From: Patescibacteria group bacterium UBA3466
Lineage (GTDB): Bacteria > Patescibacteriota > Minisyncoccia > Phycocordibacterales > UBA918
NCBI GenBank assembly: GCA_002378195.1
Contig: DFRJ01000002.1
Coordinates: 204,816-268,815 of the forward strand
DNA length: 64,000 nucleotides
Reading direction: 5' to 3'
Within the stretch, counting starts at the first letter, position 1. Each line of letters starts with the position of its first letter. Below are positions 6,765 to 57,583 of the stretch, one piece after another. The notes beneath the pieces are model-generated. The model saw only the letters and a program-made list of their open reading frames with translations. It did not search any database and was not told the DNA's origin. The position numbers and the translations under genes are program-made.

Positions 6765-7496
6765 TTAGTAATATCGCGGAGTGTGGGTCTGTTCTAGCTC
6801 CATGTGAATATCCTCAAAGTGGCCAGCTTGAGTGATGATAACGTCACCTTGCTTGAAGAGTTCGAGGATAGCTAAAAAACTAACAATGACATTCTTGTGT
6901 TCAGTTTCTTGTGACCTGATTTCAGAAAATCTAGTCTTCATTTGAGTTTCAATGCGCTTTCTAAGTTTTGCCATCATGTCTTCAAGGGAAATTGTCGGCT
7001 TAACTTTGGCGGTAGGCTTCTTCTCAGTCCGTGGTAAATCGGTTAATACCCTTCTCATGGCTGCTTGCAGTGCGGGAATGGTACAAAAATCATCTGGTAA
7101 GAATAGCGGGTCTCGGGGTGGTGCGTATTCTGGTTCAAACATCATGGTGGTGCCAAAGCGAGTCTGGATGTGTTGAGCCGCATCTCTATAAAGCTGGTAG
7201 CGCTTCAGTCTCTCTTCTAGATTCTCGATACTTTCCTCTTCCTCTTCAGTAAGATCTAGTACTGGTAATAGTGATTTTGATTTAATCAACAGCAGCGTCG
7301 ATGCTAATGAGACAAATTGCGAAGTGTTGGGCAGCGATAGCTCCTGCATGGCGCTGACTGTTTGCATGTATTCATCAGTCACTGCTGCTAAGGCGATGTC
7401 ATTAATCAGTAGTTTTCTTTTCTCAACCAACTCAATAAGCAGCTCCAAAGGACCTTCAAAAGTATCAGTTTTGATTGAAAAGCTTGCTGTGCTCAT
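6765..7496 (-). CDS. scpA: Segregation and condensation protein A (ScpA).
   Basis: FEGPLELLIELVEKRKLLINDIALAAVTDEYM is an ScpA N-terminal signature. It lies adjacent to scpB. Confidence 0.82.
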   Translation of the reverse strand: MSTASFSIKTDTFEGPLELLIELVEKRKLLINDIALAAVTDEYMQTVSAMQELSLPNTSQFVSLASTLLLIKSKSLLPVLDLTEEEEESIENLEERLKRYQLYRDAAQHIQTRFGTTMMFEPEYAPPRDPLFLPDDFCTIPALQAAMRRVLTDLPRTEKKPTAKVKPTISLEDMMAKLRKRIETQMKTRFSEIRSQETEHKNVIVSFLAILELFKQGDVIITQAGHFEDIHMELEQTHTPRYY

Positions 7497-16333: not shown

Positions 16334-17161
16334 CTACTTATTCGTTATTGTTTTAATAAAATCTGACACCTCCCTCGGATAAGCGTTCCAGTTTCGATCA
16401 GACTCCTCTTTAGCTGTGATATGTTCGATTATTAAGGGTCGGACACCAATAATTCTTTCGATATATTTGAAAGCTGGATATACATTTTCTCTAAAAAATT
16501 GGTATTCTTCGGGTGTGAAGCATTCATACTGCATTCCATAAACACACATTATGGCCATTGTGCACTTATATTGCTCTAAAATGTCATCTCTATGATGTCT
16601 GTTCACCCATTCTGTCTCTGGTCCTATTTCGGTATTGCTCGGCTTGAATCTGTTAAATAGTTCTCTATGAAAGGTCACCAATAATTTATTCGATTCGGTC
16701 ATTATTTCTGACAGAGGCTTACCCTGGTTCGATGAAAAATCTATAATTGTTTTATATTCTATAATATCATTACCGTTCTTATCTACGCCAACAATTAGCG
16801 GTAGTTTGCCAAGCGGTAGCTTAAGTTCGTTGTCTGGTACAAATTTGCTTTCAGTATCTTCTCCGACTATCAATTTTAGATCAAACCTTGCGCTTTCGGT
16901 ACTGACTTTCTTGAGTTCAAGATTGGGAGTAGCCAGGAATCTTGAAAGGTAGAAAACTGGTTCCTTCTTACTAAAATGATCGGGCAGGTCTGTTTTTAGA
17001 AAATTGTCAACTTTATGAAAAATTTCTGGATCTTCCCTTCTTCGCTTTATTTCCGCAACTGCTTCTTCTGCGGGTGTATAAAAATCAGCCAATAGAAAAT
17101 TTATTGGCGTTATGCGTCTCAAAAGCCCTGCTATACGTTGTTGTAGCATTTTAGTACTCAT
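16334..17161 (-). CDS. Hypothetical protein (275 aa).
   Basis: A long ORF with no recognisable motifs. It contains Cys and His residues (CTMAIMCVYGMQYEC, IIEH). Confidence 0.5.
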   Translation of the reverse strand: MSTKMLQQRIAGLLRRITPINFLLADFYTPAEEAVAEIKRRREDPEIFHKVDNFLKTDLPDHFSKKEPVFYLSRFLATPNLELKKVSTESARFDLKLIVGEDTESKFVPDNELKLPLGKLPLIVGVDKNGNDIIEYKTIIDFSSNQGKPLSEIMTESNKLLVTFHRELFNRFKPSNTEIGPETEWVNRHHRDDILEQYKCTMAIMCVYGMQYECFTPEEYQFFRENVYPAFKYIERIIGVRPLIIEHITAKEESDRNWNAYPREVSDFIKTITNK

Positions 17162-29564: not shown

Positions 29565-31517
29565 TTATACTAGAACCGCCTTAATTCTCCTGATGCCAGC
29601 TGAAGATGACTCTTCTTTCTTTATTTTGAATGTACCCTTGATATCAGATAGTGTTTCTACATGTGGACCACCACATAGCTCTCGTGAGAACATAGTGCCG
29701 TCATCCCCTTTTATGTTATAGACTTTAACCTCATCCGGGTAACGATCCCAAAAACTACCCTCCACAGTTGGATCATTTTCTGCTTCAGATTTAGGCATTT
29801 GTTCCACGTAGACTTCCCCACCAGTTTTAATTGCGTCGTTTACCCACTCTTCAATTTTGTCCAAAGTATCTCGGTCTACCTTCTCTGGGTGCGTGAAGTC
29901 AAATCGTAGTCTCTCACCAGTAATATTTGACCCAGCTTGGTGAATATGGTCTCCAAGGAAGTGCCTCAAGGCAGCGAGCATTAAGTGTGTCGCAGTGTGG
30001 TACTGGACGACTTGGTCAGAATTGTCTGCCAGTCCACCTTTAAACTTTTGTTCAGCTCCGGCTCGTGATTTTGCTCGGTGTTCATCCATGAGTTTTTGAA
30101 AACCTTTGATATCTACAGTCAAACCTTTTTCCGCAGCTATTTCTTCAGTTAATTCTATTGGGAATCCGTAAGTGGTAAACAGTTCGAATGCGTTCTTCGC
30201 TCCAATAGTACGCTTTCCAACCGGTGGAACATCTTTGTCGACCACTTTCTTACCGTCAACTTCTTTAGTGGTTAGGTGTACTTCAAGTGAAATCTTACTA
30301 AATTGTTTCAAACCATTCTCAAGGGTTTTTCTAAACTGCGACTCTTCCTTTTGTATTGCTTCAAGGATGCTGTCTCGCTGCTCCGAGAGGTTGGTGTAGT
30401 GGTTTCGATACATGTCTATTACTCCATCAGCCAGATTCTTGAACTCACCGTTGGGAATTTCAAGTTTGTCAGCAAAACGCACTGCTCGCCGTAGCAGTCT
30501 CCGTACAAAGTAGCCTTGTTCTGAGTTGCTTGGCATTACATCATCACCAATCATGAAAACAGCTCCTCTAATGTGGTCAGTAATAACCCTAAAAGCTTCA
30601 GTGTTAGAGTCATATGTCTTACCTGATAATGTTTGGATTTTCTCGATAACGTTCCAAAGCAGGTCCACTTTATAGACGTCAGGTGAGTTGTTGGCAGCAG
30701 CTGCAATTCGCTCTAATCCCCCACCGAAATCAACATTTTGCTTTGGTAGCTTCTCAAAACCATTTTCAGTTTTGATGTATTCCATGAATACGGAGTTACC
30801 AACTTCCATGAAGCGTCCATTATCACTAGCCGGATGACTAAACTTACCGAATTTTTCGGGATCATGAATAGAGTCTGATGGATCAAAATCATAGAACATT
30901 TCGCTGTCGCCTCCCCCAATCTCACCGACCGGCATATTTTCTGGTACTCCGGCTCGGCTCCACCAGTTTTCTTTGGCATCATAGTAGAAAATTCGTTCAC
31001 CTTCCTTCATCCCTCTCTCGGCAGCCTCTTCAGCTGAACCCATATGAGCAATGCCGTGAGACAAACCTCGTTTCTTAAATTCCTCTTGCCAAATCATAGC
31101 TGCCTCTTCGTCTTTGGGGATACCCGCCTGCTCATCGCCGGCGAAGACAGTTACATAGAAGTTCTCAGGATTCAGACCGACTACATCAAGGTAAAAACTG
31201 GCAATCCACGGGATTTGTTCCTTCTTAAAATAGTCACCTAGCGACCAATTACCCAACATTTCAAAGAAGGTGGTATGGCTAGTGTCACCCACTTCATCAA
31301 TGTCTTCGGCTCGAAAGCACTTTTGTGAGTCGGTCAGACGGGTTCCTTTTGGATGTGGTTCTCCGAGCAAGTATGGGACTAGTGGTTGCATGCCGCTTCC
31401 AGTAAATAGGGTTGTAGGATCATTATCGGGCACTAAAGCAGCGGATGGAAGAACAGCGTGCTGGCGTTCCGCCATAAAATCTAAGTATTTTTTTCTAATA
31501 TCATTTCCGCCAACCAT
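29565..31517 (-). CDS. alaS: Alanyl-tRNA synthetase, short form (650 aa) lacking the C-terminal C-Ala/DHHA1 domain.
   Basis: A class II core (FTGSGMQ, FRAEDIDEVGDTSHTTFFEMLGNWS) and an editing domain (HTATHLMLAALR...CGGPHV). Confidence 0.9.
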   Translation of the reverse strand: MVGGNDIRKKYLDFMAERQHAVLPSAALVPDNDPTTLFTGSGMQPLVPYLLGEPHPKGTRLTDSQKCFRAEDIDEVGDTSHTTFFEMLGNWSLGDYFKKEQIPWIASFYLDVVGLNPENFYVTVFAGDEQAGIPKDEEAAMIWQEEFKKRGLSHGIAHMGSAEEAAERGMKEGERIFYYDAKENWWSRAGVPENMPVGEIGGGDSEMFYDFDPSDSIHDPEKFGKFSHPASDNGRFMEVGNSVFMEYIKTENGFEKLPKQNVDFGGGLERIAAAANNSPDVYKVDLLWNVIEKIQTLSGKTYDSNTEAFRVITDHIRGAVFMIGDDVMPSNSEQGYFVRRLLRRAVRFADKLEIPNGEFKNLADGVIDMYRNHYTNLSEQRDSILEAIQKEESQFRKTLENGLKQFSKISLEVHLTTKEVDGKKVVDKDVPPVGKRTIGAKNAFELFTTYGFPIELTEEIAAEKGLTVDIKGFQKLMDEHRAKSRAGAEQKFKGGLADNSDQVVQYHTATHLMLAALRHFLGDHIHQAGSNITGERLRFDFTHPEKVDRDTLDKIEEWVNDAIKTGGEVYVEQMPKSEAENDPTVEGSFWDRYPDEVKVYNIKGDDGTMFSRELCGGPHVETLSDIKGTFKIKKEESSSAGIRRIKAVLV

Positions 31518-40045: not shown

Positions 40046-41422
40046 CTAATTCATTTCTCCAGTCGGTAGGTTCGATGGCGCTTCCTTTCTGGTATTTTCT
40101 ACTCGACCTAAGCCTGGAGTAAGAATACTTGAACCAGGGATGTGGTATATGGTGGCTAGTTCTTCTACCGAAAATATTTTCTCCTCATCAGCTCTTGATA
40201 TTTTTTCCGCGGCTAGGTAATAGCGTGCTTTATACATTTCGAGTTCTTCTTTTTTCATGGCGGTTAGTCGATTGCCAGAAATGTCAGAAAAGAACTTATA
40301 GTTAAAGTCGGTTCGCCAACGAACTCCGATAGCGTTGCGACCAACAATGTCATACTGCCCAAAAGTACGCAACATCGGCGCGATCATATTAGGGTCAAAC
40401 TTGCCTGTTTCCACAATGTAAATAGCTCTAATCGCGGTGTAAAAAGCGTATTTTCCGTAATTTCTTTCGATGGCGGCGATGGTGTCACGTTCGCCAGCAG
40501 TAAGAAGTGGTCGATTGTCACTGTCTTCAATAGCACCAATATTCTGATCTCGTTTCATTAATTTGTCTACTTCTGCCATAGCGGCCTCGCTCCAGTCTTT
40601 CACTGGACTAGCAAATGGCCATAGCTTGCCTTCCTTAAAGCCCATAGCTGTGTGTGGTGTCATGAGAATCTGAATCCACACCCTCTCATGTGGCTTCGCC
40701 TTACCAAGATACTCAATCATGGCTGACATTGGATCATATTTCTCCTCCTCCTTAGGCATCTTGTCTAGGCCAAAATCAACGTAAGTCTTAATTGGGTAGA
40801 CCTCATCCTTTTTCTTGCCCATGTGGAAGGAGATCATTTCCCATTTATCTGGATCCCACACCACCTCCCCGGTGTAGTCCACCTCTTCTTCCACGACTTC
40901 TATACCAGGATACTGAGCGTACAGTTGCGTTTCCAGGGCATCCTTTACTTTACTGCGCGGTACATTGGCATAAAATCTTACATCACCCCCAATTGACACT
41001 AACTCGAGACTATTAACCAGCGGATGTTTTCCATCTAAATAGGTTTGCATCACGTTATCGCGGCTGTTTACCTGATGCATCTGCGTCAGTACACTTTCCA
41101 TGGCTTCAGGTGATTTAAATACTTCCTGTGGCAGCTTAATGCGCAGAGTCACTCTGCCCATGCGGTAGCGGTACTTTTCTTCGACTGACCACATCCACTG
41201 CTCAAAAGCGATGTACGCAAGCGCCATCGGTAGCCAGATTGGTGAGGTGGCGATGATAAAGGTCAGGATGGGACGAAGATCCACGTCCAGCACTGACATC
41301 ATTTTAAATAGTACAAAAAAGCACAATAACAAAAGCGCTGGTGCAGCAATGGCACCAATGTATGACTTAAGTGTTCGTGTCATGTTGGTATTGTACACCA
41401 CAAACAAAGAGCGTCTGGACAT
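40046..41422 (-). CDS. Hypothetical 2-TM membrane protein (458 aa) with a large soluble domain.
   Basis: There are no recognisable motifs. It lies directly downstream (2-nt... 24-nt gap) of the sigma-r4/HARE-HTH gene. Confidence 0.5.
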   Translation of the reverse strand: MSRRSLFVVYNTNMTRTLKSYIGAIAAPALLLLCFFVLFKMMSVLDVDLRPILTFIIATSPIWLPMALAYIAFEQWMWSVEEKYRYRMGRVTLRIKLPQEVFKSPEAMESVLTQMHQVNSRDNVMQTYLDGKHPLVNSLELVSIGGDVRFYANVPRSKVKDALETQLYAQYPGIEVVEEEVDYTGEVVWDPDKWEMISFHMGKKKDEVYPIKTYVDFGLDKMPKEEEKYDPMSAMIEYLGKAKPHERVWIQILMTPHTAMGFKEGKLWPFASPVKDWSEAAMAEVDKLMKRDQNIGAIEDSDNRPLLTAGERDTIAAIERNYGKYAFYTAIRAIYIVETGKFDPNMIAPMLRTFGQYDIVGRNAIGVRWRTDFNYKFFSDISGNRLTAMKKEELEMYKARYYLAAEKISRADEEKIFSVEELATIYHIPGSSILTPGLGRVENTRKEAPSNLPTGEMN

Positions 41423-41446
41423 TTGTCCAGACGCTCTTTGTTTGTT

Positions 41447-56875: not shown

Positions 56876-56910
56876 TAAAAATCCCAATGGATATGCACCA
56901 TTGGGATTTA
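56876..56910 (+). terminator. Hairpin terminator after the PMM gene.
   Basis: AAAA-ATCCCAATGG-atatgca-CCATTGGGAT-TTA. Confidence 0.5.
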
Positions 56911-56917
56911 TGCGTTG

Positions 56918-56990
56918 TGGACCGTACTGGACTTGAACCAGCGACCTCTTCCATGCCATGGAAGCACTCTACCAGCTGAGCTAACGGCCC
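56918..56990 (-). tRNA. tRNA-Ala (anticodon GGC). CCA is not encoded.
   Basis: The rc is GGGCCGT-TA-GCTC-AGCTGGTA-GAGT-G-CTTCC-ATGGCAT-GGAAG-AGGTC-GCTGG-TTCAAGT-CCAGT-ACGGTCC-A. A G3:U70 pair is present. Confidence 0.85.
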
Positions 56991-57071
56991 TACCGGCGCA
57001 GATTTTAGCACAGACCAAGGAATAATTAAAAGCCATCTATTAAACAGGCTTGAATGGTCACACCAGTAGTT

Positions 57072-57108
57072 GCTCATGAATTAATTCATGAATAAGTTCA
57101 TGAGCAAT
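57072..57108. repeat. Nested TCATGA palindromes between the two tRNA genes.
   Basis: TTGCTCATGAA-ttaattcatgaataag-TTCATGAGCAA (11-bp arms), with an inner perfect palindrome TCATGAATTAATTCATGA. Another TTTTCATGAATGAAAA palindrome lies near 57228. Confidence 0.5.
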
Positions 57109-57193
57109 TATGCTTACCACTGACTAACCTTTTCGAGTCCTCTTGCACCAATTTACAAAATGCCACCCTAGTGGGTGACATTTCATAAATTAG

Positions 57194-57211
57194 TGGACCA
57201 GAGAGGACTCG
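57194..57211 (-). repeat. An 18-nt exact copy of the 3' end of tRNA-Ala(TGC) (att-site-like direct repeat).
   Basis: TGGACCAGAGAGGACTCG at 57194-57211 is identical to 57357-57374. It also forms a 12-bp inverted repeat with TTCGAGTCCTCT at 57133-57144. Confidence 0.5.
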
Positions 57212-57321
57212 GTCAGGAGTCACTTATTTTCATGAATGAAAATATAGTGCTCACGACCCTGCCTCCTTCGCAAGCTCAGTCCGACCTTCGAGTTTGCTCC
57301 CAGCAATCCAAACCGTCTATA

Positions 57322-57342
57322 CAAAAACCGCCATAAAGGCGG
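57322..57342 (-). terminator. Terminator immediately after tRNA-Ala(TGC).
   Basis: The minus strand reads CCGCC-tttat-GGCGG-TTTTTG. Confidence 0.55.
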
Positions 57343-57356
57343 AGTTGTATAAACGG

Positions 57357-57430
57357 TGGACCAGAGAGGACTCGAACCCCCGGCCTCCTCAGTGCAAATG
57401 AGGCGCTCTAGCCAACTGAGCTACTGGCCC
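57357..57430 (-). tRNA. tRNA-Ala (anticodon TGC). CCA is not encoded.
   Basis: The rc is GGGCCAG-TA-GCTC-AGTTGGCTA-GAGC-G-CCTCA-TTTGCAC-TGAGG-AGGCC-GGGGG-TTCGAGT-CCTCT-CTGGTCC-A, with a G3:U70 pair. Confidence 0.85.
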
Positions 57431-57495
57431 AAGCGAGTAATTAAATGGAAGCTAGCTTACATTTAAGTTACGAGTGCAGGGCCAGGAAACTCGTT

Positions 57496-57508
57496 TACTG
57501 GCCCAAGC
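57496..57508 (-). repeat. A 13-nt copy of the 5' end/upstream junction of tRNA-Ala(TGC).
   Basis: TACTGGCCCAAGC at 57496-57508 is identical to 57422-57434. It is embedded in the hairpin GGGCCAG...CTGGCCC. Confidence 0.4.
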
Positions 57509-57583
57509 AGCTATGCTCGGAATTGAGAAAATTTCTCAAGTGCGCACAATAATACTGTTCTCAAACCCTAAAGTCAAGGAATT

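Follow-up and report, generated by a model that had tools for sequence, protein, structure and literature searches.

Why does the spacer between two alanine transfer RNA (tRNA) genes hold displaced copies of the ends of one of them? The question is raised by a 64,000-nucleotide (nt) stretch of contig DFRJ01000002.1 from Patescibacteria group bacterium UBA3466 (positions 204,816 to 268,815), hereafter the window, in which tRNA-Ala(TGC) is followed by tRNA-Ala(GGC); all coordinates below are window coordinates, and both tRNA-Ala genes lie on the minus strand. An original prediction, made from the letters alone, had seen in this locus either what is left of an integrase-borne island after excision or rearrangement, or an unrecognised structured element. 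The reading that we favour, with a probability of roughly 0.7, is that the tRNA-Ala(TGC) spacer has been colonised by small non-coding insertion elements of a widespread patescibacterial family that occupies the ends of tRNA genes, of transfer-messenger RNA (tmRNA) genes and of at least one protein gene. The earlier interpretation was partly borne out. Direct repeats of a tRNA end did prove to be a mark of foreign DNA inserted at tRNA gene ends, and the spacer does hold a conserved structured element that had gone unrecognised. The reading as a remnant of a larger island was not supported: the DNA flanked by the repeats is itself a small but complete representative of an element family that recurs elsewhere, and units in other genomes are present or absent as whole, repeat-bounded segments.

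Displaced tRNA ends and the type A element

The last 19 nt of the intact tRNA-Ala(TGC) (57355-57430, minus strand; called by ARAGORN, and by Rfam as tRNA with 65.9 bits) form the proximal repeat copy X0 (57356-57374, minus strand), and the same 19 nt (GTGGACCAGAGAGGACTCG) recur exactly at 57193-57211, 163 nt away start to start and across a gap of 144 nt. The original prediction had found this copy as 18 nt (57194-57211) lying 146 nt downstream; the copy stands, one base longer and with a slightly shorter gap. With up to three mismatches allowed, 0.02 matches to GTGGACCAGAGAGGACTCG are expected window-wide and none of 100 shuffles reached two, so that the repeat passed the comparison with shuffled sequence that had been suggested as a check.

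The distal copy closes a structured element of about 110 nt, type A (57196-57303, minus strand), whose structure is supported by covariation. A covariance model, R1, built from a seed alignment of 54 family members from which the window was excluded, matches the window at 57303-57196 on the minus strand with 60 bits (E = 3.1e-15) and over its full length (model positions 1-134). This is the only significant match; the next-best (16682-16792, minus strand, 9 bits, E about 1) falls in an AT-rich stretch and is most likely a chance match. The element begins 52 nt past tRNA-Ala(TGC), behind a terminator hairpin, T0, that follows the tRNA directly on its 3′ side (57323-57342, minus strand; CCGCC TTTAT GGCGG and a T run, found by terminator scan and fold). 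Read 5′ to 3′, it consists of a short degenerate left arm (GGA, a mini hairpin TTGCT-GGG-AGCAA, and ACTCGAA), a helix Pa with hairpin H1 (GGTCGGACTGAGCTTGCGAAGGAGGC), a helix Pb with hairpin H2 (GGGTCGTGAGCAC...GTGACTCCTGACC) and the repeat copy. Model alignment and fold place the smaller of two TCATGA palindromes (57228-57243, no strand assigned) at the tip of H2, the distal part of which varies in sequence across the family with its pairing kept. The core ends in ...CCTGAC and abuts the distal copy X1 of the tRNA 3′ end (57193-57211, minus strand; tRNA positions 56-74, CGAGTCCTCTCTGGTCCAC); past the junction, which reads ...CTCCTGAC and then CGAGTCCTCTCTGGTCCAC, 19 of 19 bases are those of the tRNA. 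The 3′-end copy of the original prediction thus constitutes the distal end of such an element.

Across the family the type A core runs ..CGAA, AGNCGGAGC, H1, GCGAGNCGGGGTCGAGAGTACTTAG, a variable part and ACTTAGTAACTCGTGAC, followed across the junction by C and tRNA positions 57-74. Over the 54 members the proposed structure is paired in 90.5% of cells (76% in shuffles), with compensatory changes in 26 of its 32 pairs; shifted-register controls pair in 32-43% of cells. One G:U pair, which can form on the tRNA-sense strand only, is conserved in 53 of the 54 members. The other non-Watson-Crick pairs of the core helices number 13 G:U and 25 A:C, in helices that are almost purely Watson-Crick, a balance unlike that of a typical RNA helix and compatible with DNA hairpins, though not decisive. 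No Rfam 15 family matches the element: in the window, at gathering score, nothing but tRNA is reported, and in seven relatives (E ≤ 1) and seven further loci (gathering score) there are tRNA, one large-subunit ribosomal RNA (L196) and weak, chance-level matches outside the elements.

The family in other genomes

Eighty genome loci, fetched through the adjacent D-Ala-D-Ala ligase Ddl (33-66% identical to the Ddl of the window), provide an unbiased set of 590 kilobases (kb) and 77 tRNAs, in which tRNA-Ala(TGC) usually follows ddl. In these loci many tRNAs (Ala, Trp, Leu, Tyr and Lys) have parts of themselves repeated downstream: positions ~54-71 as an inverted copy at about 50 nt, and positions ~54/56-74 as a direct copy at 110-185 nt. 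In each genome the copies agree with the tRNA of that genome, and a single ancient scar therefore cannot explain them. An exact 3′-end copy of at least 12 nt lies within 320 nt downstream of 15 of 71 tRNAs in the unbiased loci, where chance would give an estimated 2.5e-4 or so per tRNA; an inverted 3′-end copy lies downstream of 16 of the 71, and a 5′-end copy upstream of six (21 of 211 tRNAs over all loci). R1 has 26 matches in the unbiased ddl loci, every one of them downstream of a tRNA on the same strand and 20 at a distance of 28-83 nt.

Beyond the ddl loci, the 17-mer ACTTAGTAACTCGTGAC was found in at least 120 metagenome stretches. Among the matches listed, 80 of 128 occurrences have a tRNA on the same strand no more than 400 nt upstream, representing 18 amino-acid identities, and many of the occurrences without a nearby tRNA sit at contig edges. 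IMG/VR viral contigs contain no copy of the 17-mer; a looser motif picked out six viral contigs, none of which was confirmed by the family model, and a phage origin was rejected on these grounds. The family is widespread in Patescibacteria, and no description of it was found in the literature, journal coverage being incomplete.

Target genes extend past tRNAs. Type A units follow tmRNA genes in four loci (L118, L136, L139 and L181) and the rplL coding sequence in two independent loci; in one of the latter, L205, downstream of the gene end ACAGTAGAATTGAAATAA (..TVELK and stop) come a terminator, AATTCTACTGT as the inverted copy, the core and, as the displaced copy, ACTGTGGAATTTAAATAG (TVEFK and stop). 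A second kind of core, type B, defined from 14 distinct examples, is made of a long AAGGTT/AACCTT hairpin and then GTACWG..CTGTAAG, and mosaics of types A and B exist. In a few loci open reading frames (ORFs) lie between the repeats, encoding a helix-turn-helix (HTH) protein, DUF7689, an MgtC-like protein and unknowns, with no recombinase among them; these cargo ORFs were set aside as offering no mobility function.

Typically, a gene end (X) is succeeded by a terminator, an inverted copy of X, the structured core, another copy of X and the native terminator. The canonical 3′-side unit sits in the tRNA gene between T55 and C56, and the tRNA remains complete. Such a unit carries an inverted copy (IR) of tRNA positions 54-74, sometimes split by a small hairpin, P2, and its second copy comprises tRNA positions 56-74 plus 0-7 trailer bases and is attached to the native terminator. 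Among 18 members whose repeat reaches 10 nt or more, 15 have it begin at tRNA position 56, right after GTGAC. A type C core (GAACCGAAGGCCCACCATTTTGG...CAAAATGGATGGTCTCGACCGAAGGGAGAGG) was noticed in L197 at about 6900-7050, by comparison with L138, with the same entry point between T55 and C56 and the same arrangement of terminator and inverted copy. Insertions on the 5′ side duplicate tRNA positions 1 to ~20, some with a P2 hairpin and a type A core; in L104 (tRNA-Leu) and L111 (tRNA-Ser) the type A core with P2 lies upstream of the tRNA, after a copy of positions 1-18/22, and next comes an AT-rich stretch with promoter-like hexamers, as if the insert supplied a new promoter. Elsewhere (L058 at about 7790, L029 at about 5430) the inverted copy is replaced by CTGATGAG-AAAGCC, which resembles part of a hammerhead core; a known RNA family or ribozyme, which this CTGATGAG variant had suggested, was discarded, no Rfam ribozyme family reaching the gathering score in these loci.

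Three pairs of contigs that are near-identical around the site differ by exactly one unit, two of them at the boundary between tRNA positions 55 and 56. At tRNA-Gly(GCC), L168 and L095 have flanks 99.3-99.9% identical; L168 lacks the unit and has tRNA and own terminator intact, whereas L095 holds an additional segment of about 163 nt between copies of the 19-20-nt repeat CGATTCTCCCTACCCGCAC(A), or 182 nt including one repeat copy, which contains T0, an inverted copy split by P2 and a type A core, the native terminator staying with the distal copy. At tRNA-Lys(CTT), L138 and L197 are near-identical around the site (downstream flank 98.8%, upstream 88% identical), and L197 has an extra type C unit of 128 nt with a 19-22-nt repeat, which lies at T55/C56, between the tRNA and an older, minimal type A unit. 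At tRNA-Trp, L142 and L158 differ by a unit of 140 nt, both boundaries of which fall exactly after core 3′ ends. Such one-unit differences between near-identical contigs make this a discrete unit of insertion or deletion, and in filled alleles T0 is within the inserted segment. Newer units lie nearest the tRNA, and arrays therefore build up. The orthologous ddl-tRNA-Ala locus of related genomes holds type A, type B, both or neither. Between L027 (4981-5853) and L029 (4981-7171), with flanks about 92% identical, the region after tRNA-Ala(TGC) measures 872 and 2190 nt, a difference of 1.3 kb; the tRNA-Ala(TGC) 3′ end is a hypervariable hotspot in these two.

Which of the copies is maintained can be read from 38 type A units adjacent to a tRNA. 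Mean mismatch counts are 0.63 between the inverted copy and positions 56-64 of the live tRNA, 1.84 between the inverted and distal copies, and 1.45 between the distal copy and the tRNA. Unit by unit, the inverted copy resembles the tRNA more closely in 20 cases and the distal copy more closely in one, with a tie in the other 17. The tRNA end, T0 and the inverted copy together form one long near-perfect palindrome, A and T tracts included, in which pairing of the inverted copy extends to T54 and T55, which lie outside the repeat. From the palindrome and the mismatch counts it follows that X-T0-IR is the coherent module and the distal copy a relic; a closing helix of inverted and distal copies as a selected RNA feature finds no support in these counts.

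Mobile element, structured RNA or integration scar

If the units are insertion elements, an enzyme would move them in trans. During insertion or excision, recognition might be of single strands folded into the long X-T0-IR hairpin and H2, and the paired bases beside the right junction (GUCG:UGAC) may act in single-stranded form along with the hairpins. A more specific proposal, which we put forward tentatively and hold to be doubtful, is a new class of non-autonomous mobile element that finds its target through nucleic-acid pairing instead of a sequence-specific protein. The inverted copy would be an 11-21-nt guide to a gene 3′ end before its terminator, entry would take place at a fixed distance from the duplex end, 2 nt inside it, the unit would bring a terminator (a promoter, if on the 5′ side), which would let the essential genes of a minimal genome survive insertion, and a change of guide would retarget it. 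Pairing-guided targeting, if true, would explain how one core comes to lie at about 20 different tRNAs, at tmRNA and at rplL. A unit at the tRNA-Arg of L095 has a perfect 26-nt repeat but an inverted copy with two mismatches to tRNA-Arg, which hints at a repeat derived from the target and an inverted copy carried along by the element; the varying length of the repeat speaks for the opposite.

Several observations weigh against a mobile element. The units examined and the DNA beside them yielded no transposase, integrase or reverse transcriptase, the filled-allele locus L095 no enzyme of the transposase or recombinase kind and the window no Xer-type recombinase (by tblastn; the window ORFs were not exhaustively searched against Pfam), and no excised or circular form was seen. 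The present/absent pairs fit precise deletion between direct repeats, or transfer by homologous recombination, equally well, which leaves fresh insertion unproven. Intact repeats measure 19-26 nt, with a fixed left end and a right end that varies from 0 to 7 nt past the tRNA; a simple fixed-stagger target-site duplication therefore does not account for them and was abandoned. The strong conservation of core sequence and structure makes a cellular function possible, instead of mobility or besides it. In the window itself, the 720-nt intergenic region is identical in all eight full-length contigs of the window population, from different samples, and the arrangement is therefore fixed in that population. 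The type A unit of the window is also atypical: its left arm, the inverted copy, is degenerate, with three mismatches over tRNA positions 56-64 (a reduced arm common to L021), and its distal copy perfect. Lastly, a putative second unit in the spacer (unit 2, described in the next section) is not recognised by R1, which gives 4 bits at best.

Conservation of this kind might instead reflect a functional structured RNA of the tRNA operon, either a small RNA or a cis-acting 3′-trailer element in tRNA processing, surveillance or regulation, whose present/absent pattern would come from secondary loss and whose tRNA-matching arms would pair with, or mimic, the T arm and the acceptor 3′ strand of the neighbouring tRNA. 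Such a role would agree with a secondary structure kept through many compensatory changes, with a primary sequence highly conserved across hosts whose Ddl proteins are 33-66% identical to that of the window, with constant orientation on the strand of the tRNA, with units that are followed by a terminator, with an inverted copy kept complementary to the live tRNA and with the nearly invariant G:U pair of the sense strand. It fits poorly with a strong terminator between tRNA and unit and no apparent room for a separate promoter, with a closing helix that is not maintained because the distal copy decays, or with tandem arrays and present/absent variants in 99%-identical genomes. The same core, moreover, follows tRNAs of 18 identities, tmRNA and rplL, the cores of types A, B and C differ yet share their insertion geometry, and the G:U excess typical of RNA helices is absent. 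In tRNA-Ala the inverted copy puts A, not G, opposite U70, and a mimic would therefore be no substrate of the alanyl-tRNA synthetase (AlaRS). We judge an RNA function of this sort unlikely as the explanation of the locus.

A classical attachment (att) scar appears quite improbable. In this case the T loop of tRNA-Ala(TGC) would have been entered by a phage or island whose tyrosine integrase is tRNA-specific, and nearly all of the incoming DNA would later have been lost, leaving attL, attR and a little arm sequence. A direct repeat that begins in the T loop and reaches the 3′ end of the tRNA, a distal copy that retains the native terminator, newer material nearest the tRNA and ORF cargo between the repeats at some loci all agree with it, and a repeat of the tRNA 3′ part, a terminator that goes with the distal copy and newest material next to the tRNA are hallmarks of integrase accretion in the tycheposon model (bioRxiv 10.1101/2020.12.28.424599). 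The DNA between the repeats, however, is a conserved element of about 110-165 nt in at least 120 loci and not a random residue, it has the same core at 18 tRNA identities although each integrase family is specific for its own tRNA (bioRxiv 10.1101/2020.12.28.424599), and what is present or absent is a whole unit of 128-182 nt. Neither a Xer-type query of the window nor the examined loci gave an integrase, and the viral contigs lack the 17-mer, the six with the looser motif being unconfirmed by the family model. As for chance similarity or local replication slippage with no element at all, its case consists of short repeats (12-19 nt), a spacer with many hairpins and a high AT content and a motif, TTCATGAA, that is not enriched; against it stand the 0.02 matches expected for the 19-mer even with three mismatches, an independent family model that matches the region at E = 3e-15 and the same architecture at dozens of tRNAs with copies that fit each host tRNA, and this reading is refuted.

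Narrower candidates were also tried and rejected. A tmRNA or two-piece tmRNA is excluded in that ARAGORN and Rfam find nothing, no T arm is possible and the feature is also present in L014, where the spacer, at 177 nt, is too short for a tmRNA. A tRNA pseudogene fails on the five bases before the copied T-loop segment, which cannot pair with the 3′ strand of the T stem. Primer-binding sites of a reverse transcriptase or retroelement do not fit inverted copies that begin TGTGG..., the complement of genomic ...CCAC-A and not of ...CCACCA. A P-nucleotide-like palindrome, arising from hairpin opening of the native trailer, is contradicted by a T0 that differs from the trailer of the empty allele. 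Genes for XerC/D-like proteins and YraN near units look like conserved synteny with tRNA-Gly and tRNA-Arg, not like linkage to the units. TIGR-Tas arrays proved unrelated on comparison with their published description, and remnants of group I introns would lie elsewhere in the tRNA, the tRNA introns of Patescibacteria being at position 35/36 in the anticodon loop (PMC13011429).

Williams is said to have described, in 2002, the T loop as a known sublocation preference of integrases, and the insertion elements that we favour come closest to integrase-borne islands at tRNA genes, with which they share several traits: insertion in the 3′ part of a tRNA or tmRNA gene, restoration of that gene and partial tRNA copies as direct repeats. 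As in tycheposons, the newest material lies beside the tRNA and older units decay outward (bioRxiv 10.1101/2020.12.28.424599). Elements of the tycheposon type are kb-sized, encode an integrase and are each tied to one tRNA (bioRxiv 10.1101/2020.12.28.424599), whereas the present units measure 110-180 nt, are non-coding, have no integrase that could be found and use one core for 18 identities, tmRNA and rplL; each carries an inverted copy of its target, at least some (as seen in the filled alleles) their own terminator, and none was found in viral contigs. In the window, the 19-nt direct repeat expected of an integrase island is present, and in place of an integrase and kb-scale cargo there are 144 nt between the repeats. 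Miniature inverted-repeat transposable elements (MITEs) and REP/REPIN sequences are likewise small, non-coding, hairpin-forming, multi-copy, intergenic after genes and presumably moved in trans. MITEs differ in having fixed terminal inverted repeats, where the arms of the present units are local target copies that change with each tRNA, and a 2-10-nt duplication, where the repeat here is 19-26 nt with strict orientation and position.

Prophages e14 and phage 21 replace the 3′ end of icd, and the rplL units resemble them in that they duplicate the coding end, with a displaced copy that can still be read as the end of a coding sequence; they differ in size, in the lack of an integrase and in having the same core as at tRNAs. 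The IS200/IS605 elements cause no target duplication and have a 4-5-nt motif as target. With the ends of these elements and with PATEs, the units share strand-specific imperfect hairpins near the ends and a lack of terminal inverted repeats. The UGAC before the right junction pairs with GUCG at the 5′ foot of a hairpin, resembling the pairing of guide and cleavage site that Barabas et al. reportedly described for IS608 in 2008, and the inverted copy pairs with flanking target bases, including T54 and T55 outside the repeat. The 19-26-nt repeat, the lack so far of a Y1 transposase linked to them and unrelated helix lengths and sequences set the units apart, and the likeness is one of logic. Integron attC sites and the attP of CTX phage (XerCD) also derive the recombination partner from intrastrand pairing of two inverted segments, conserve structure over sequence and form cassette-like arrays at one entry point, and the X-T0-IR stem mimics a target duplex, P2-branched in some units. 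In the units, by contrast, targets are the 3′ ends of many different gene sequences, genes are usually lacking and a role of IntI or Xer would be conjecture.

Small non-autonomous inserts at tRNA genes are a known kind of element; that the targeting principle is new has a realistic chance. The genomes of Patescibacteria are tiny, and few mobile elements have been recognised in them. With inserts at about a fifth of the tRNAs in the sampled loci, the family is therefore a major, unannotated component of these genomes, and it is a probable cause of breaks in assemblies and of wrongly set gene boundaries near tRNAs. It illustrates in nature how a parasite can occupy essential genes harmlessly, by way of a replacement end and a terminator. 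If it is true that the inverted copy directs insertion, the machinery would be compact and possibly programmable; if the core is instead a functional RNA, it would represent a widespread new class of RNA tied to tRNA genes.

Putatively stacked units and surroundings of the locus

Unit 1, nearest tRNA-Ala(TGC), is T0 plus the type A core with its shortened left arm (57342-57212), and X1 (57211-57193) is the displaced tRNA end. A near-perfectly palindromic hairpin, T1 (57148-57192, minus strand), makes one stem of about 37 base pairs (bp) with X1 and with an inverted copy, IR1, and as DNA the segment 57128-57215 folds at -26.4 kcal/mol (z = -8.9, none of 200 shuffles being as good). IR1 (AGAGGACTCGAA; 57132-57143, minus strand) is a 12-nt exact inverted repeat complementary to tRNA positions 54-65. 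The same inverted T-arm sequence (TTCGAGTCCTCT, 12 nt) had been reported at 57133-57144, one nt off its actual place; it is not incidental, given that canonical units carry such a copy between terminator and core and that here it is part of a second unit. X1, T1 and IR1 are the X-T-IR module of this older, degenerate unit 2.

Unit 2 (57146-57045) begins in the manner of type B, with a junction (GGACTCGAA-AAGGTT) common to units in L040, L067 and others, and ends in GGTGTGACC. Between these lies its long hairpin (57056-57131, minus strand; the terminal GGTGTGACC is at 57056-57064), with z = -3.3 as an RNA fold and -1.9 as a DNA fold and with the large TCATGA palindrome (57067-57110, 25-nt arms, 88%) at its tip. 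Both TCATGA palindromes of the original prediction are thus present, and they turn out to be hairpin tips, of H2 in the type A element and of the long hairpin in the degenerate second unit, instead of arm-type or regulator sites; TTCATGAA shows no enrichment in the window (four found, 1.65 expected). A regex scan found no GTACWG-N-CTGTAAG module of type B in unit 2, and the fetched loci hold no homologues of it beyond the junction motif. Since it has neither an R1 match nor the type B module, its family assignment is by layout only, and we class it as degenerate or unclassified. On its 3′ side a degenerate, T-loop-like remnant, ATTCAAGCCTG (57045-57055, minus strand), is closer to the T arm of L014-type tRNA-Ala (TTCAAGTCCTG) than to that of the window tRNA (TTCGAGTCCTC) and is the probable decayed distal repeat of unit 2.

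On the 5′ side of tRNA-Ala(TGC), the predicted 13-nt copy of the tRNA 5′ end was confirmed: TACTGGCCCAAGC occurs at 57422-57434 and again, as an exact direct repeat, at 57496-57508, and consists of four leader bases and tRNA positions 1-9 (displaced copy on the minus strand, GCTTGGGCCAGTA, positions -4 to +9). With two mismatches allowed, 1.19 matches to TACTGGCCCAAGC are expected window-wide, and taken alone the copy is not significant; as a pattern, an exact 13-mer 74 nt away with an adjoining 7-nt inverted copy (CTGGCCC, 57479-57485), chance is ruled out, and the same geometry occurs at other tRNAs. The 61-nt insert between the two copies (57435-57495, minus strand) contains that inverted copy, of tRNA positions 1-7, and a palindrome with 16-nt arms (57441-57466); as a single strand it forms two hairpins (z = -3.6), and no homologue of it was found in the fetched loci.

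The spacer between the two tRNA-Ala genes is 364 nt long in the window, 177 nt in L014 and 722 nt, with an ORF, in L017. Relatives thus differ in spacing; identical spacing with nothing inserted had been named as a finding that would refute the original prediction, and on this point the outcome favours it. The suggested search for tRNA fragments yielded nothing, ARAGORN calling no gene in this spacer. Upstream of the tRNAs lies ddl (58594-57584, minus strand), followed by a promoter-like site of the tRNA-Ala operon (57549-57577, minus strand), in which TTGACT, 17 nt and TATTAT precede GTGCGCACTT (10 of 12 matches in a consensus scan). A TTGACT-N17-TATTAT/ATTATA-gtgcgcactt block also occurs 5′ of tRNA-Ala(TGC) in L014, L015 and L017, and a leader of 115 nt (minus strand) separates the promoter-like site from tRNA-Ala(TGC). 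In most of the Patescibacteria loci fetched (L014-L047) a same-strand tRNA-Ala(TGC) comes after ddl, often with a conserved TTGACT-N17-TATTAT-gtgcgcactt promoter between them, and a D-alanine enzyme is therefore consistently linked to an alanine tRNA. Downstream, tRNA-Ala(GGC) (56917-56990, minus strand; ARAGORN and Rfam) is followed by the terminal hairpin of the operon (56879-56909, minus strand), which an inverted-repeat search shows as a perfect 12-bp stem before a T run.

The window derives from a marine patescibacterium: identical contigs come from several TARA and other assemblies, and the closest genome relatives, judged by Ddl, are metagenome-assembled genomes of Paceibacteria type. 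Five contigs of the same population from other samples (L008, L010, L011, L012 and L013) all terminate within the tRNA-Ala intergenic region, three of them at about 57091-57109 within the large TCATGA palindrome; this suggests either assembly breaks caused by hairpins or repeats, or hidden heterogeneity. Genes for RAYT-like transposases (IS200-type Y1) were seen in L114 (9000-10100), L188 (4900-5900) and L196 (2400-3400), with REP palindromes of their own (e.g., TCCCACATGTCGGACATGTGGGA) that are unrelated to types A and B, and REP/RAYT systems therefore exist in these Patescibacteria-type contigs apart from the tRNA-end elements. A RAYT-like Y1 transposase was accordingly rejected as the mobiliser of the units: such genes accompany four to five loci, at 1.5-4 kb, flanked by their own palindromes, which also distinguishes the units from REPIN/RAYT systems, and they are absent from the window and the ddl loci.

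Both tRNA-Ala genes carry G3:U70, as had been predicted and as is read directly from the sequence. The product of alaS (29565-31517, minus strand) has 650 amino acids and stops shortly past the editing-domain motifs (HTATHL ... CGGPH), a length consistent with the earlier remark that its C-Ala domain is missing. The sole other long perfect hairpin of the window, a palindrome with 22-nt arms at 41400-41445 (ACAAACAAAGAGCGTCTGGACA / TGTCCAGACGCTCTTTGTTTGT), is probably a bidirectional terminator.

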